This document shows, one piece after another, positions 1 to 6,523 of a DNA stretch of 6,523 nt. The notes beneath the pieces were generated by a model, which did not search any database, was not told the origin of the DNA, and saw nothing but the letters and a program-made list of their open reading frames with translations. Numbering within the stretch: position 1 is the first letter of the stretch; every line of letters begins with the position of its first letter. The translations under genes and the position numbers were made by a program. Origin of the DNA: a virus (lineage: Duplodnaviria; Heunggongvirae; Uroviricota; Caudoviricetes); IMG/VR virus record IMGVR_UViG_2663762945_000006, positions 1-6,523 of that record; one strand, written 5' to 3'.

Positions 1-54
1 ATATAGTTAGAGCAATAACATTACCCAGGCGTTCTGGCGTAGACGATTATTCGA

Positions 55-1642
<1,588 letters not shown>

Positions 1643-1868
1643 TCATTTCCCCTTAACGCCGGGGTAGCGGAACAAAAACCTGCTGCATAGTTATTAAAGT
1701 CGAACCCTGCCATCATGTTCTTACGCCTCGGGCTGGCTACTTAACCCCTGACCACTGCCTGGTAACTCGAAGTATTGCCTGGCGTTCTGTGGGGCGGGGT
1801 GGGTTGATGAAATAATGATGCACTTTTAAAGTTATGATGTCAACACTTATAAAGTTAGCTTTTGATCA

Positions 1869-1896
1869 ATAAAAACCGCCTCGTGTGAAGCGGTTC
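1869..1896 (-). terminator. Rho-independent terminator downstream of the parE-like gene
   Basis: Minus-strand RNA would read CCGCUUC-ACAC-GAGGCGG (7-bp stem with one G-U pair, 4-nt loop) followed by UUUUUAUU. On the plus strand the same hairpin is not followed by a U tract. Lies 16 nt downstream of the parE stop (1912-1914). Confidence 0.6.
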
Positions 1897-1911
1897 TGCG
1901 AAAAAAGAGGA

Positions 1912-2193
1912 TTATCCAGGAAATTGTCGTCTGGAGTGGGTGACACTTACTATTTCAACACTCGAAGCGGCTACACGGTACAGAATGATATAGTTAGGAT
2001 GAGCTACAATCTCACGCAAGCCAAACGCTCTGTCGCTTGATGGGTATAAGTACGGATGTTCAGATAAAGCTAAAACACATGTCTCAATGCGAATCTTTAG
2101 CCTGCGTGCGGCATGGAGATTTTCTTTTGCAATATAGGCTACGATCTGACGTAAATCATCACGTGCAGAAGGTAGCCATAAAATGGGCAGCAT
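1912..2193 (-). CDS. parE2: Type II toxin, ParE/RelE superfamily (93 aa), third gene of a paaR-paaA-parE-type three-component TA operon
   Basis: MLPILWLPSARDDLRQIVAYIAKENLHAARRLKIRIETCVLALSEHPYLYPSSDRAFGLREIVAHPNYIILYRV...VEIVSVTHSRR has the ParE-like pattern (W.P.A..DL..I..YIA..N...A.R......) and the C-terminal (E)I(V/L)(S/R)V.H motif. The ATG overlaps the antitoxin stop (TAATG). SD-like GGGAG about 6 nt upstream. Paralog number (parE1 versus parE2) cannot be decided from sequence alone. Confidence 0.8.
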   Translation of the reverse strand: MLPILWLPSARDDLRQIVAYIAKENLHAARRLKIRIETCVLALSEHPYLYPSSDRAFGLREIVAHPNYIILYRVAASSVEIVSVTHSRRQFPG

Positions 2194-2384
2194 TACACAC
2201 TCCCGCTAGTCGCAGCAATTTGGGCAATGAGATTTTCCATTTCTGCCATTACATCATCATGAGGAATTGCAGGGCGCGGATCTGCAAGATTTGCAGCTAC
2301 TTTTGCACGTAGCCATTCGTTGTAATTATTTTCTTGCTCAACGGTTTCAAACTCAGAAACCATCGGCGAAAGGGCAGTGTTCAT
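2193..2384 (-). CDS. paaA2: Type II antitoxin, PaaA2-like (63 aa), partner of the ParE toxin
   Basis: MNTALSPMVSEFETVEQENNYNEWLRAKVAANLADPRPAIPHDDVMAEMENLIAQIAATSGSV. Length 63 aa and the ...NEWLRAKV... motif match my recollection of the PaaA2 antitoxin of E. coli O157:H7. Start chosen at the internal ATG (2382-2384) because a perfect AGGAGG lies 6 nt upstream; the longer 84-aa ORF (to 2447) has no RBS and overlaps the upstream gene. Confidence 0.75.
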   Translation of the reverse strand: MNTALSPMVSEFETVEQENNYNEWLRAKVAANLADPRPAIPHDDVMAEMENLIAQIAATSGSV

Positions 2385-2413
2385 AACATACCTCCTTTGG
2401 CTTATGATGTAGA

Positions 2414-2821
2414 CTATGCTCGGTGCCCTTTCTGGGCAGCGAGCCATCTTGCAACAGTGCGCTCCATTGATTCTTTTTTGTCTTTCATGTCTTTAAGCAT
2501 TTTTTCTTGATCTTCCTCTGGAAATGCTCCGAATGTTTGAAGCAGTTCCATTTGCCTGGGGCCTATTTTCATAGTATCTGGCACCACAACCTGCTCTTCT
2601 TCGTTTGGCGGTAACATAAACCAATATGGGGGATAACCCGTTACTTCAGAAAGTTTATCAAGATTAGCTGTTGATGGACTTGTGATTCCGTGAACCCACT
2701 TTTGTACCGATTGCTGGGCAACACCAATCCTGCGGGCTAGTTCTGCCTGCTTAAGTCCTGTTTTTTCCAGTACCAATTTTATTCGGTACGTGGTTATTTC
2801 AAGGGTGGTCATTCGCTTCAT
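2414..2821 (-). CDS. paaR2: XRE-family HTH transcriptional regulator (135 aa), PaaR2-like; occupies the CI-repressor position of the prophage switch; no S24 peptidase domain
   Basis: N-terminal HTH: ...LEKTGLKQAELARRIGVAQQSVQKWVHGITSPSTANLDKLSEVTGYP... The C-terminal about 60 aa are acidic/lysine-rich with no Ala-Gly/Ser-Lys peptidase signature. Divergent from the Cro-like gene across a 107-bp promoter region, and immediately upstream of and co-oriented with the antitoxin-toxin pair. Start could be ATG at 2821 (probably leaderless) or the in-frame ATG at 2812. Confidence 0.75.
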   Translation of the reverse strand: MKRMTTLEITTYRIKLVLEKTGLKQAELARRIGVAQQSVQKWVHGITSPSTANLDKLSEVTGYPPYWFMLPPNEEEQVVVPDTMKIGPRQMELLQTFGAFPEEDQEKMLKDMKDKKESMERTVARWLAAQKGHRA

Positions 2822-2928
2822 GCATTCATTTTACATAAAAAAAGTGTAACTAGCACAATCAGCTTAAAGGTGTTGATAAACTAACTTTAAAAGTGTATAA
2901 ATCATGGTGATTCACTGGAGATAACGAT
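2822..2928. promoter_or_regulatory. Divergent promoter/operator region between the paaR2-like repressor and Cro-like ydaS
   Basis: Plus-strand candidate promoter: -35 TTGATA (2873-2878), about 17-bp spacer, TG-extended -10 (TGtATAAAT, 2894-2902), SD GGAG (2917-2920), ATG at 2929. Short symmetric elements: TTACA-N9-TGTAA (2831-2849), ACTTT-a-AAAGT (2884-2894), AATCA-tgg-TGATT (2900-2912). The repressor gene starts at the region edge with no obvious SD, consistent with a leaderless transcript. Confidence 0.5.
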
Positions 2929-3195
2929 ATGCATGAATGTTTAAAAAATAAAATTCACCAAAGAGGGTTATCCCAAGCAGGTATTGCTCGTTTGATTGGA
3001 TTACCGCAACAGGTTGTGTCTCGATGGGCTAATGGTCAGCAGGTCCCTGCATCAAGGGTTCTGCAACTTTGTGAGATTATGGCGTGGGAGGTTACCCCCC
3101 ACGAACTCCGACCTGATATTTATCCTAACCCAACAGACGGCTTGCCTGCTGAGTTTCAGACTAGCACACAGCCAGCGACGGGAGTTGATTCATGA
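2929..3195 (+). CDS. ydaS: Cro-like HTH protein, YdaS family (88 aa)
   Basis: MHECLKNKIHQRGLSQAGIARLIGLPQQVVSRWANGQQVPASRVLQLCEIMAWEVTPHELRPDIYPNP...; HTH plus the ELRPDI motif typical of YdaS/Cro-like prophage proteins. Its stop overlaps the ydaT start (ATGA, 3192-3195). Confidence 0.75.
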   Translation: MHECLKNKIHQRGLSQAGIARLIGLPQQVVSRWANGQQVPASRVLQLCEIMAWEVTPHELRPDIYPNPTDGLPAEFQTSTQPATGVDS

Positions 3196-3617
3196 AAATC
3201 AAGCATGAGCACATCCGCATGGCGATGAATGCCTGGGCATATCCTGACGGTGAGAAGGTGCCAGCTGCTGCTATTGCCAGAGCGTATTTTGAACTGGGGA
3301 TGACATATCCCGAGTTGCACAACGACGACAGGCACAACGCGCTCTATCTCAACACCCAAAAGATTTTCCGTTGGCTGGATAAAGACACTCCTGATGCTGT
3401 TGAGAAAATTCAGGCATTGTTACCGGCGATCGAAAGGGCAATGCCACCTCCGCTGGTAGCCCGAATGCGCAGCCACAGTTCCGCTTATTTTCGGGAGCTG
3501 GTGGAGACGCAGGAACGGCTAGTGAAAGATATCGATGATTTCGTTGCATCAGCGATCGTTCTGTTCGACCAGATGAATCGTGGTGGTCCGGCGGGTAATT
3601 CCGTGGCTGTGCATTGA
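3192..3617 (+). CDS. ydaT: YdaT-family protein (141 aa), proposed CII-like regulator / former 'toxin YdaT'
   Basis: MKIKHEHIRMAMNAWAYPDGEKVPAAAIARAYFELGMTYPELHND...; matches my recollection of Rac-prophage YdaT (about 140 aa, same N-terminus). SD-like GGGAG 7 nt upstream. Translationally coupled to ydaS. Confidence 0.75.
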   Translation: MKIKHEHIRMAMNAWAYPDGEKVPAAAIARAYFELGMTYPELHNDDRHNALYLNTQKIFRWLDKDTPDAVEKIQALLPAIERAMPPPLVARMRSHSSAYFRELVETQERLVKDIDDFVASAIVLFDQMNRGGPAGNSVAVH

Positions 3618-3688
3618 CTGAAAATATTTATACCGGATCGCTTCCGGCAATTCGTGAGTAAAAAGATTCGGTCTCAGAAGAGGTGAGT

Positions 3689-4729
3689 ATGGCTAATGCC
3701 TGGCTCAGATTATGGCATGACATGCCAAATGACCCTAAGTGGCGAACAATTTCCAGGGTGTCAGGACAGCCAATCGCAACAGTGATGGCTGTGTATATCC
3801 ACCTTCTGGTGAGCGCGTCACGAAATGTCACGACATGTCACGGCGTGTCACTACGTGGTCACATTGATGTCACAACGGAAGATTTAGCAAGTGCACTTGA
3901 TGTGACGGAAGAAGTAATTGATTCAATTTTGCAGGCGATGCAGGGGCGGGTGCTTGATGGAGATTTAATCACTGGATGGGAAAAACGCCAGGTAGCGAAA
4001 GAGGATAACGGCAACGTTTCGCAAACCGCGAAATCCCCGGCAGAGCGTAAGAGAGCACAACGCGAGAGGGAAAAATTACGAAAACAGAATGAGGGGTGTC
4101 ACGATGAGTCACGCATATGTCACGACATGTCACTACGAGTCACGACAGATAAAGATACAGATAAAGAATTAAACCCCACACATAACGCGCGCGTGCGCGA
4201 GAGTGCTCCGACCAGTGAATCGAACGGTACGCCGTTGCAGGCAGCGGAACCTGATTACCAGGAAAGCCTGAGCGAACCCATCGGGAAGTTTCCGATGGCC
4301 GATGGCTGGCATCCGTCGCCGGATTTTCGACGGCGGGCTGCACTGTGGGGAGTGGCTCTGCCGGAGCCTGAATTTACACCTGCTGAACTTGCCGCCTTCA
4401 GGGACTACTGGGCAGCTGAGGGGAAAGTTTTTACGCAGGTTCAGTGGGAGCAGAAATTCGCCCGTCACGTAAATCACGTCAGGGCGCAGGTTAAACCAGT
4501 CAGCAAGGGGGTGCGTCATACAGCAGCACCAGGTGGCACCGCATCACGGGCAGTTCGGGAAATTCGGGCAGCACGTGAGCAGTGGGAACGTGAAAACGGA
4601 TTTGTCAGCGACGGAAACGGCGTGGAAGCTGTGGGAGCTCATGGGGGAGGTTTATTCAAACCGCTGGACTCAGAAGAACGGGGCCGCACCTTCGAAGCTC
4701 TGGATTGCCCAGATTGGCGCGATGACTGA
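3689..4729 (+). CDS. Phage replication initiator (lambda O functional analogue) with a DnaT-like C-terminal domain; carries two internal iteron arrays
   Basis: ATG at 3689 with AAGAGG 6 nt upstream (the listed ORF begins at GTG 3683). C-terminal region [62 protein letters not shown] closely parallels the E. coli DnaT C-terminal domain (recalled: [61 protein letters not shown]). The position after the cro/cII-like genes and the internal direct repeats fit an O-like initiator. The last about 65 codons overlap the next gene in another frame, so the true 3' end is uncertain. Confidence 0.7.
3817..3873. repeat. Iteron array 1: six direct copies of GTCAC(G) at 10-11 bp phasing
   Basis: GTCAC begins at 3817, 3827, 3837, 3847, 3858 and 3869 (cgTCACGaaatGTCACGacatGTCACGgcgtGTCACTacgtgGTCACAttgatGTCACA). 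An inverted copy GTGAC lies at 3902-3906. Inside the O-like CDS (codons ~43-62). Confidence 0.75.
4097..4167. repeat. Iteron array 2 (five GTCAC(G) copies at 10-11 bp phasing) plus a tandem 12-bp A-rich duplication; candidate replication origin
   Basis: GTCAC at 4098, 4108, 4119, 4129 and 4139. The 17-mer ATGTCACGACATGTCAC is shared with array 1 (3825-3841 and 4117-4133). Followed immediately by ACAGATAAAGAt ACAGATAAAGAa (4145-4167), an AT-rich stretch, and then a (CG)-rich tract at 4184-4199. Confidence 0.7.
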
Positions 4730-5183
4730 ACAGCAAATCAGGCTGGTCTGCCGTCAGTGCATGGACCGCTGCCGGGCGGGTGAAACGTGGCCCCCGGACC
4801 TGGCTGAGTTTGTTGCGCTGATTTCGGAGAGTGGGGCAAATCCATTTGGTCTTACGGTGGATGCCGTGATGGAAGAGTACCGGCGCTGGCGCAATGAATC
4901 CTGGCGGTACGACGGGAGTGATAAATACCCGTGGCCACAGCCTGTGCTGTACCACATTTGCCTCGAGATGCGCACCAGAGGGATTGAACGTCAGATGACT
5001 GAAAGTGAGCTGAAACGACTTGCAGAACGACTGTTGACCAAATGGGCAAAGAATGTTGGTAACGGCATGAGTGTTCCGCCAGTGCGACGACAACTGGAAG
5101 GGCCAAAACACCCGCCAGGGCCAACGCCAATTGAGTTACTGAAACAGGAATATGAGCGCCGGAAAGCGGCTGGTTTTGTCTGA
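4533..5183 (+). CDS. Lambda P-like replication protein (helicase loader), about 180-216 aa depending on start
   Basis: C-terminal half ...[40 protein letters not shown]... parallels lambda P (recalled: ...AESYPWKSNAHYWLVTNLYQNMRANALTDAELRRKAADEL...), and ...[11 protein letters not shown]...[10 protein letters not shown] parallels lambda ...GITTMEQVNAG...SPGQFVAW. Start is ambiguous: GTG 4533, GTG 4575, GTG 4590 or ATG 4641, none with a strong SD. The frame is open from 4473. An ATG at 4722 overlaps the O-like stop (ATGACTGA) but would remove conserved N-terminal residues. Confidence 0.65.
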
Positions 5184-5216
5184 ATTTGAGAAATGATTTT
5201 GTCGGAGGAAATTTTA

Positions 5217-5930
5217 ATGGAAACCGTTTTTGACGCACTGAAAGCACTGAAAAGAGCCTCTTCACAGGAGGTGTCGGCCCGCCTTGGAATCAGCCGCGAA
5301 GATGCTGTCAACGAGCTGTGGAAGCTGAAACGCCGTGGTGAAGCAGATAACAAGGGGTCGATGTGGTGGCTGACGATTGAGGCAACTGAAATGGTCACAA
5401 AAACCACTGCGGAGATGCTGATTAACTCAATTGAACAGCATGGTCCTCAGTCGGCTGACGAACTGGCGTTAATGTTCGGGATTACCTCCCGCCGGGCGAA
5501 TTCAACGCTGGCAATGGCAATAAGCAAAGGTCGTCTGATTCGAGTAAATCAGAACGGTAAATTTCGTTACTGCCTGTCGGGCGATAATTTACCAGCAGAG
5601 CCGAAAGCTGCATCGGTAACGGAAACTGCTGGTAAAGCCTTTCCTCAGACAGCAGGTGTTGCGTTACCAGTCCGGGAAGCGGAAACACAGGAAGAAATTA
5701 AAACTGAAAGTGTGGCGGTCACAGTGCAGTCACAGCCGTCGTTCACCAGAAAGCATCCGGATAGTCTGATTTTACCATCGCTGCATGTGGCTAACCGCGA
5801 ACTGCGCCGGGCAAAAGGTCAGGTTCAGAAGTGGGAGCGAGTCTGTGCTGCGCTGCGTGAGCTGAACAAGCACCAGGATATTGTTCGACAGATTGTCGAT
5901 TCCTCCAGTCGTATTGTGTCGGAAAAGTGA
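5217..5930 (+). CDS. Hypothetical prophage protein (237 aa) with two winged-helix-like segments
   Basis: ATG at 5217 preceded by GGAGG (5204-5208, 8-nt spacer); the listed ORF starts at an upstream ATG (5193) that lacks an RBS. Segments ...[28 protein letters not shown]... and ...[35 protein letters not shown]... look like winged-helix DNA-binding motifs. No family recognised from memory. Confidence 0.6.
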
Positions 5931-5945
5931 TTGCCGGAGGTACTT

Positions 5946-6338
5946 ATGGCAAGAGTATTTACACAGGAAGAGCGGGAAGAAGTGAAGGCGCGCATTGTGG
6001 AATTCGTGCGCCTGAGCGGACGAGAAACTTTTCGACAACTGGCAGATAAAACGGGTGTCAGTAAGACCGCTATTCGTCGTTTATCTGGTGCGCTTGCGGC
6101 CAGTGGTGATGTCTGGCTCTCTGATTGCGGGGTATTTCCATCAGAGCAGGCGTATCGCGTATGGCGTAAGACACCGGAGAAGGCTGCTGACCCGACACTG
6201 ATTCGAAAGTTACCTGACGGAGAAATACGTCGTTACAACAGATGGCAGAACATAATTTGTCGTGAGTGCCGCCAGAGCGAGGTTATGCAGCGTGTGCTGG
6301 CGTTCTATCGGGGAAACTTTCAGGAGGTGATGGAGTGA
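5946..6338 (+). CDS. Hypothetical prophage protein (130 aa) with an N-terminal HTH-like segment
   Basis: ATG at 5946 with GGAGG (5936-5940) 5 nt upstream; the listed ORF starts at 5931. Segment ...GRETFRQLADKTGVSKTAIRRLSGALAASGDV... is HTH-like. Stop TGA at 6336-6338 overlaps the next start (GTGA). Confidence 0.55.
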   Translation: MARVFTQEEREEVKARIVEFVRLSGRETFRQLADKTGVSKTAIRRLSGALAASGDVWLSDCGVFPSEQAYRVWRKTPEKAADPTLIRKLPDGEIRRYNRWQNIICRECRQSEVMQRVLAFYRGNFQEVME

Positions 6339-6523
6339 GGGTGAGAGTTTATATTGCCGGTCCAATGACGGGATATGAAAATTTCAACCGTGAGGCGTTT
6401 CACAAGGCGGAAGAGGAACTGAAACGGGAAGGGCATACCGTCTTAAACCCGGCAGTACTTCCGGACGGGCTGACACAGCCGCACTACATGGATATTTGCA
6501 TGGCAATGATTCGTTGTGTGGAT
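6335..6523 (+). CDS. DUF4406-family protein (nucleoside 2-deoxyribosyltransferase-like fold), 5' part only; runs off the window end
   Basis: Translation (V)RVRVYIAGPMTGYENFNREAFHKAEEELKREGHTVLNPAVLPDGLTQPHYMDICMAMIRCVD has the characteristic (K/R)(I/V)YIAGPMTG...N...F N-terminus of DUF4406 proteins. GTG start at 6335 with AGGAGG at 6322-6327 (7-nt spacer); alternative GTG at 6341. Not in the ORF track because no stop falls within the window. Confidence 0.7.
   Translation, partial: MRVRVYIAGPMTGYENFNREAFHKAEEELKREGHTVLNPAVLPDGLTQPHYMDICMAMIRCVD

Follow-up and report, generated by a model that had tools for sequence, protein, structure and literature searches.

YdaS and YdaT as probable Cro-like and CII-like regulators of a rare lambdoid immunity variant, with a predicted YdaT-dependent leftward promoter

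In a stretch of 6,523 nucleotides from a member of the Caudoviricetes (positions 1 to 6,523 of the IMG/VR record IMGVR_UViG_2663762945_000006; this whole stretch is called the window in what follows), the adjacent genes ydaS and ydaT very probably encode a Cro-like and a CII-like regulator, respectively, which together make up the rightward arm of a switch of the lambda type. Correct as this finding is, it is an ordinary one: it arrives again at a model already published, for a closely related system worked out by experiment in E. coli O157:H7 and K-12, and the locus itself is a rare immunity variant. The only part that is perhaps of specialist interest is the comparative evidence for the location of a YdaT-dependent promoter, which is presented below along with the competing interpretations of the gene pair. 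The elements on which the argument draws are the following, in order along the window:

1815-1857, minus strand: PL/OL-like leftward promoter, TTGACA-17-CATCAT in the promoter scan, with two operator repeats
1912-2193, minus strand: parE toxin gene (product matches ParE_toxin at 3.6e-16)
2193-2384, minus strand: paaA2-like antitoxin gene (product matches PaaA2 at 6.3e-20)
2414-2821, minus strand: repressor gene, PaaR2/CI analogue (product matches HTH_3 at 5.6e-14)
2873-2901, plus strand: PR-like promoter, with -35 TTGATA at 2873-2878, a 17-nt spacer and -10 TATAAA at 2896-2901
2882-2895, plus strand: operator-type repeat TAACTTTAAAAGTG, OR1-like, inside the PR spacer
2929-3195, plus strand: ydaS, predicted 88-aa Cro-like HTH regulator
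3158-3166, minus strand: predicted PRE-like extended -10, TGC TAGTCT, with the hexamer at 3163 to 3158 and the TGn at 3166 to 3164
3185-3202, no strand assigned: YdaT box (OM) TTGATTCATGAAAATCAA, an inverted repeat that runs across the start codon of ydaT
3192-3195, plus strand: ATGA in which the ydaS stop and ydaT start codons overlap, read from the sequence
3192-3617, plus strand: ydaT, predicted CII-like activator of 141 aa that combines a POU-like HTH with a C-terminal helix for tetramerisation

Identity of the two gene products

As the preliminary description of the locus had it, the two genes overlap: the tetranucleotide ATGA at 3192-3195 holds both the ATG of ydaT and the TGA of ydaS. 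RefSeq gives both genes the same coordinates in a 99.8%-identical prophage, which differs from the window by a single synonymous change across 2800-3700. Each gene is preceded by a GGAG, at 2917-2920 with the ATG 8 nt further on in the case of ydaS, and at 3181-3184 with the ATG 7 nt further on in the case of ydaT. Of the translational coupling previously claimed for the pair, the overlap and the separate GGAG of ydaT stand for this locus; however, the overlap recurs in just 19 of the 88 loci compared, and tight coupling is therefore not a requirement that has been conserved. The compared set comprises 80 IMG/VR loci, which form the bulk of the comparison and are 82-100% identical in YdaT, six genome loci recovered by a profile search of genome contigs with the YdaT alignment, the Rac prophage of E. 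coli K-12 and the CP-933P prophage of E. coli O157:H7. Coupling by ATGA overlap is a subtype feature and not a family-wide one, and in Rac the two genes lie 22 nt apart as against their overlap in the window.

YdaS, which carries the family labels PF15943 (Pfam) and COG4197, scores 41.4 bits against the YdaS_toxin profile of PF15943 (cut-off 30; 1.3e-10) and 31.1 bits against HTH_3 (cut-off 23; 2.3e-7). It also matches PHROG 35, annotated as 'transcriptional repressor' (7e-23), the Cro protein of a Xylella prophage (3bd1; E=2e-4) and YdaS of Rac (40% identity over 50 aa, E=1e-8). Its gene is the first of the rightward operon and is divergent from that of the repressor, with repeated operators lying over both promoters. 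YdaT in turn scores 37.3 bits against the YdaT_toxin profile of PF06254 (cut-off 21; 3.8e-9), so that the assignment of both proteins to the YdaS and YdaT families, which had earlier been made from the sequence without searches, is borne out.

YdaT additionally recovers PHROG 163, 'CII-like transcriptional activator' (1e-42), and, over its whole length (residues 1-141), the PDB entries 8bt1 and 3c4r at E about 1e-74. The former is the structure of CP-933P YdaT, in which a POU-like HTH is joined to a C-terminal helix through which a tetramer of 222 symmetry is formed (PMC9986795). The window protein is 79% identical to this homologue and only 38% identical to YdaT of Rac, with which it shares the start MKIKHEH and the R/W pair of helix 3; R60 and W61 of the recognition helix are invariant in the window, CP-933P and Rac. 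The core of helix 6 (positions 103, 110, 111, 114, 117, 118 and 121) reads V, L, V, I, F, V, A where CP-933P has I, L, V, V, F, V, A, i.e. it is conserved or conservatively changed throughout, whereas residue 53 is a Leu, the Arg53 of the CP-933P protein having been modelled as contacting a phosphate.

No relationship to lambda CII itself was recovered in the searches performed: the Pfam search of YdaT gave no CII family (Phage_CII) at E<=0.01, the PDB search gave no CII chain at E<=1, and BLASTP against lambda CII gave E=1.3. Lambda CII recognizes a direct repeat, TTGC-N6-TTGC, which flanks the -35 of its target promoter. The ydaS/ydaT junction has no such element, the one match in the window (4011-4024) being distant from it and at chance level, and the YdaT site is an inverted and not a direct repeat. 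Lambda CII is also organized as a dimer of dimers, in contrast to the POU-like HTH and 222 symmetry of YdaT (PMC9986795). Thus, as far as these searches and comparisons reach, YdaT is to be regarded as a functional analogue of lambda CII and not as its homologue.

The repressor arm, the operators and the immunity type

The PR-like promoter upstream of ydaS matches the consensus at 10 of 12 positions when read by hand; the automatic promoter scan missed it because position 6 of its -10 is an A where the scan demands a T. Its earlier characterization as near-consensus therefore holds, but whether it has the 'extended -10' attributed to it is a matter of register: with TATAAA as the hexamer, the TG at 2894-2895 is immediately adjacent and misses the spacing of the canonical TGnTATAAT by one base, and the canonical arrangement is obtained only with the weaker hexamer ATAAAT. 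The promoter occupies a position analogous to that of PR933P in CP-933P, the start site of which has been mapped by 5' RACE (PMC8630535).

The 14-mer TAACTTTAAAAGTG is present in three copies in the window (2882-2895, 1821-1834 and 1844-1857), a number that none of 200 shuffles reached. Moreover, the segment 2864-2898, which takes in the operator repeat of PR, is a 35-nt inverted copy of 1818-1852. Thus, the window holds an OR/PR/PRM region plus a mirrored OL/PL region, the leftward promoter of the latter being analogous to PL933P (PMC8630535). The 107-bp gap between the repressor gene and ydaS (2822-2928) contains PR, the -10 of PRM and an operator repeat. This PRM -10, TAAAAT (2833 to 2828 on the leftward strand), lies 6 nt from the ATG of the repressor at 2821. 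In CP-933P the paaR2 message is leaderless, with its start mapped to the A of the ATG and a GATAAT-6-ATG spacing (PMC8630535); by virtue of the same spacing, the repressor mRNA of the window is probably leaderless too and would specify a 135-aa product that begins nine bases before the start given by RefSeq. PR, PRM and OL/OR follow the same logic as in lambda, where the repressor mRNA is likewise leaderless.

The genes for the paaA2-like antitoxin and ParE (1912-2384) are transcribed together with the repressor gene, and this toxin-antitoxin pair replaces the rexAB of lambda. To the right of ydaT follow genes for a DnaT/O-like initiator, a lambda-P-like loader, a DUF1627 protein and a DUF977 protein. 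With the initiator and the loader downstream and the Cro-like gene upstream, ydaT does sit where it had been placed before, in the position of cII, which in lambda likewise lies between the repressor and the replication genes; a cro/cII position had been argued from genetic context in 2003 and once more in 2018 (PMC5917428). The complete genome that matches has this block within a full-length lambdoid prophage that adjoins potC and has int, xis, exo, dicB and lysis genes. The junctions at about 205 and at 1619/1620 of the window may reflect either a chimeric assembly or a genuine rearrangement. An Rfam scan returned no match. An oop-like antisense RNA at the 3' end of ydaT was considered and rejected: the hairpin at 3649 to 3631 is terminator-like, but it has no convincing promoter and is not conserved in CP-933P.

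Comparison with CP-933P, the region of which (CP-933P / Sp12) was taken from an O157:H7 genome via a published primer, shows which parts of this arrangement are shared. There, PaaR2, YdaS and YdaT are the functional CI, Cro and CII (PMC8630535). Gene order and orientation are the same, with repressor-paaA2-parE running leftward and ydaS-ydaT followed by replication genes running rightward; the box TTGATTCATGAAAATCAA and the ATGA junction agree exactly; OL mirrors OR in both; and ParE and PaaA2 of the window are 68% and 65% identical to ParE2 and PaaA2, respectively. In contrast, the repressor is 30% identical overall to PaaR2, with the similarity confined to the C-terminal half and an unrelated N-terminal DNA-binding domain; YdaS is 25% identical to its counterpart; the operator is TAACTTTAAAAGTG as against the consensus GTTTAGTAA of CP-933P (PMC8630535); and the replication genes encode the DnaT/O-like and P-like proteins in place of an HTH protein and an ATPase. 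As the DNA-binding domain of the repressor, the operators and YdaS all differ, the window represents a variant of a different immunity type. This type is rare, with 13 of 5426 complete E. coli genomes covering at least 80% of 1600-3700, eight of these 13 at >=99.6% identity, while a 32-mer specific to CP-933P is found in 584 genomes. Rac differs in yet other ways: its repressor RacR is unrelated, and no paaA2-parE pair follows racR.

The YdaT box and the predicted leftward promoter

The box at 3185-3202 is an exact match to TTGATT-N6-AATCAA, the strong site footprinted for YdaT of CP-933P at the ydaS/ydaT junction, the OM that is bound by the tetramer (PMC9986795), and it is the only zero-mismatch match in the window. 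On the DNA it overlaps both the ribosome-binding site and the ATG of ydaT, and the surrounding junction sequence GGAGTTGATTCATGAAAATCAAGCATGA is common to the window and CP-933P. YdaT of Rac correspondingly binds ATGATTCATGAAAATCAA over its own start codon (PMC11879457).

To the left of the box, the leftward strand presents TGC TAGTCT, which we predict to be the extended -10 of a PRE-like promoter; its start would lie near 3151 and the centre of the box at -42.5, with the ribosome-binding site of ydaT, read on the complementary strand, in the '-35' position. A position of about -42, at a promoter devoid of a -35, is the classic one for a class II activator. The prediction draws on the contexts left of the box across the compared loci, which amount to 21 distinct sequences. 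All 21 have a TAnnnT hexamer on the leftward strand at 21, 22 or 23 nt from the box; at other offsets within 90 nt such a hexamer occurs in at most two of the 11 clusters formed at 60% identity (mean 0.29 per offset), although these contexts are partly related, so that fewer than 11 independent lineages stand behind the -10 statistics. The hexamer is kept whether the DNA codes for the C-terminus of the Cro-like protein or is intergenic.

The occurrence of TGn further follows a compensatory pattern. A TGn lies directly upstream of 15 of the 16 weak hexamers, i.e. those with 3 or 4 of 6 matches (TAGTCT, TAGCCT, TAACCT, TAACGT, TAAGTT, TAATTT, TAACTT and TATCCT), the lone exception being TAGTTT; none of the five strong ones (5 of 6 matches) has it, TACAAT of CP-933P and TATGAT of Rac being among these. 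The latter -10-like element lies 21 nt to the left of the Rac box at the ydaT start (ATGATTCATGAAAATCAA). We also considered that the conserved hexamer might be a secondary YdaT operator and ruled this out: the window has no TGATT half-site left of the box, as was sought by analogy with the secondary YdaT sites OL/OR of CP-933P, and the CP-933P flanks are non-homologous; hence, the hexamer is not merely a secondary operator.

We therefore propose, at roughly even weight for and against, that the YdaT-dependent promoter of the window has a class II placement with the box at about -42. Extended to all YdaT-type lambdoid prophages, Rac and CP-933P included, the proposal becomes that each has a -35-less class II PRE in which weak hexamers are rescued by TGn, a generalization that could about equally well hold or fail. 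The geometry it would entail, a -10 located 21-23 bp to the left of a box centred at -41.5 to -43.5, is put forward with the same balance of confidence and doubt. This placement differs from both published ones: in CP-933P, OM has been described as lying downstream of PRE933P and covering its start (PMC9986795), whereas in Rac, activation was assigned to a predicted promoter, PracR4, about 190 bp from the box (PMC11879457). A start-site mapping of the YdaT-dependent transcript was not found in the text of the published reporter studies.

A second core box is located at 5535-5552, inside the DUF1627 gene, and is absent from CP-933P. As a promoter site it was rejected on reading the sequence, there being no TAnnnT 21-23 nt away on either side; it might serve as a partner site for looping by the two-faced YdaT tetramer or represent a second target. 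Lambda, for comparison, has extra CII-dependent promoters.

Alternative interpretations and a model of the switch

The published placements amount to YdaT acting from a distance, on a promoter within ydaS some 190 bp further left, or on one upstream of or over the box, with the proximal TAnnnT being no promoter element. Both have been stated explicitly (PMC11879457 for PracR4 of Rac and PMC9986795 for CP-933P), and the YdaT tetramer, having two DNA-binding faces, could bridge sites (PMC9986795). Nevertheless, we regard action from a distance as rather unlikely, for PracR4 (TTGACG ... TACGCT) is a predicted and not a mapped promoter with a spacer that we count at 21 nt, and the ydaS of the window has no homology to that of Rac or CP-933P in this region, yet the proximal hexamer is kept. 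Further, mapping of the published primers shows that the 120-bp fragment of the CP-933P PRE reporter contains no more than 84 bp to the left of the box, which requires the YdaT-dependent promoter to be box-proximal there, and the Rac reporter constructs also include the proximal TATGAT. Taken together, the short CP-933P fragment and the content of the Rac constructs make the published data compatible with the class II placement. Alternatively, YdaT might be mainly a repressor or roadblock that limits its own synthesis and read-through to the replication genes, with leftward activation being minor or an artefact. The overlap of the box with the ribosome-binding site and ATG of ydaT would suit such a role; PMC9986795 repeatedly terms YdaT a 'repressor' and has OM covering a transcription start; and the Rac protein binds, in addition, between racR and ydaS, over the promoter of the latter (PMC11879457). 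However, reporters with the Rac protein show that it raises racR up to ~29-fold in a box-dependent manner, with cross-activation by CP-933P YdaT, whereas binding to the box has little effect on ydaST expression (PMC11879457). In CP-933P the leftward PRE933P reporter is silent without YdaT and is switched on in its presence (PMC8630535), and a conserved -10 signature at constant spacing from the box is to be expected of an activator-dependent promoter, but not of a roadblock. We accordingly consider it improbable that repression is the main function of YdaT, while a repressive or roadblock role is possible as a side effect.

Very improbable, in our estimate, is that YdaS and YdaT constitute a type II toxin-antitoxin pair, with YdaT as a growth-inhibiting toxin and YdaS as its partner. 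This reading is encouraged by what the databases call the proteins (YdaS_toxin and YdaT_toxin in Pfam, 'toxin YdaT family protein' in RefSeq), by the small size and overlap of the genes, as in many such pairs, and by the toxicity that ensues upon derepression or overexpression of YdaS/YdaT of Rac (PMC5700377, PMC5700373, PMC11879457). The last of these is explained, in the case of overexpressed Rac YdaT, by transcriptional activation of the host gene rcsA (PMC11879457), whereas the YdaT of CP-933P, at 79% identity to that of the window, is non-toxic (PMC8630535). YdaT is, moreover, a tetrameric HTH DNA-binding protein the defined operator of which is present in the window (PMC9986795); the two genes occupy the positions of cro and cII (PMC5917428); and for K-12 the RefSeq annotation of YdaT now reads 'DNA binding transcriptional activator'. 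The other operon encodes a bona fide ParE/PaaA2 pair, a point from which the preliminary description had argued against an additional toxin; the pair is confirmed by the profile matches, but the argument is weak, and YdaT of Rac is toxic upon overexpression (PMC11879457). The toxin-antitoxin reading thus derives from names only, is contradicted by the data on homologues and is for these largely refuted; by analogy with them, YdaT is not expected to be the toxin of such a pair. The preference for a CII-like role over a toxin, already voiced before these comparisons, is upheld by the experiments on homologues (PMC8630535, PMC9986795, PMC11879457) taken with the 79% identity and the exact box. 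The overexpression and leftward-activation test suggested at that stage has in fact been done already on the two homologues of CP-933P and Rac (PMC8630535, PMC11879457).

Returning to YdaS and YdaT as Cro-like and CII-like regulators, the switch may be pictured as follows. Without the repressor (2414-2821), or once it has been inactivated, a single ydaS-ydaT mRNA would be made from the PR-like promoter (2873-2901). YdaS, as a small Cro-type HTH protein, would bind the TAACTTTAAAAGTG operators that it shares with the repressor in OR and in the mirrored OL, and would shut down the repressor promoter first and its own promoter later. YdaT would be translated from its own GGAG within the 3' end of ydaS, across the ATGA stop-start overlap, and its tetramer would bind TTGATTCATGAAAATCAA over its own start codon. 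Thus bound, it is predicted to activate the leftward -35-less promoter with the -10 at 3163-3158 (TGC-TAGTCT), the transcript from which would be antisense to ydaS and would continue into the repressor-paaA2-parE operon. By entering the repressor operon, such a transcript would favour the establishment of repression, like the action of lambda CII at PRE. In lambda, too, a tetrameric activator bound at the cro/cII boundary acts on a leftward promoter without a good -35, producing a transcript that is antisense to cro and continues into the repressor gene.

For the window itself, the gene structure, the family assignments, the box and the comparative promoter signature are direct observations. 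DNA binding, activation and non-toxicity of YdaT have been shown in homologues, from which we infer them for this allele. For YdaS, at 25% identity to the CP-933P protein and with different operators, we infer Cro-like behaviour by analogy, i.e. operator binding and repression of PRM before PR as reported for YdaS of CP-933P (PMC8630535).

The chief value of these observations lies in a correction of annotation: RefSeq and Pfam attach the label 'toxin' to a protein that in close homologues is a CII-like activator, and, on the strength of that analogy, the locus fits the picture of a CII-like activator completely. The comparative placement of the promoter might be new and addresses the inconsistency between the two published models, albeit as a refinement and not as a new principle. 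More generally, the locus illustrates the mosaic evolution of such switches, in which the specificity module, comprising the DNA-binding domain of the repressor, the operators and the Cro-like gene, has been swapped, with the module of YdaT and its box and the ParE toxin-antitoxin pair being retained through that swap.

Mosaic composition of the left end

Three pieces make up the window, with prophage DNA accounting only for the last of them:

1-210: match to the 3' end of yiaL (98.1% identity)
202-1619: match to an internal fragment of pstA-pstC (100% identity)
1620 onward: prophage DNA

The second junction, from pstA-pstC to the prophage, is sharp, lies a few codons inside the DUF1391 gene and coincides with a GATC. 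The three pieces were found joined in no complete E. coli genome. This mosaic could represent a chimeric clone or assembly, or else a genuine rearrangement.

Repressor architecture and translation start

The repressor encoded at 2414-2821 (- strand) is a domain mosaic when compared with the CP-933P-side sequence (L002 4132-4503): the XRE-type HTH at its N-terminus shows no relationship to the N-terminus of PaaR2, the repressor of the E. coli O157:H7 prophage CP-933P, whereas the two proteins clearly share their C-terminal part (QMELLQTFGAFPEEDQ...KKESME...ARWLAAQK). Whereas the RefSeq annotation places the start at 2812, we favor the ATG at 2821, with translation probably proceeding from a leaderless mRNA (2812-2833, - strand). 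The promoter -10 element, TAAAAT, is located 6 nt upstream of this ATG (- strand), and an identical -10-to-ATG geometry is seen in CP-933P paaR2, which has been mapped as leaderless.

Additional elements to the right of the ydaT start

A second perfect core YdaT box (TGATT-N6-AATCA) is a candidate site within the DUF1627 gene, 2350 bp to the right of the main box that spans the ydaT start:

5535-5552: candidate YdaT box, CTGATTCGAGTAAATCAG

By our estimate, chance alone would give about 0.006 such core boxes per 6.5 kb. Across 12 related loci its arms are invariant, while the spacer varies synonymously. CP-933P lacks a counterpart, encoding RLARVNQ where the window encodes RLIRVNQ, and no -10-like hexamer occurs on either side of the candidate at the 21-23 nt spacing of the predicted leftward promoter.

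Directly right of the ydaT stop codon is a further element, positionally equivalent to the lambda oop RNA terminator:

3621-3649 (- strand): terminator-like hairpin with T-run

It is not conserved in CP-933P, and no convincing promoter to accompany it was found.

Mirrored operators

A leftward promoter mirrors the rightward promoter-operator region, PR/OR:

1815-1857: leftward promoter of PL/OL type, containing two copies of the operator
2864-2898: PR/OR

Together they form a 35-nt inverted repeat (80% complementary) with arms about 1 kb apart. In lambda, a mirrored OL/OR arrangement of this kind permits repressor-mediated looping, which has also been proposed for the same arrangement in CP-933P.
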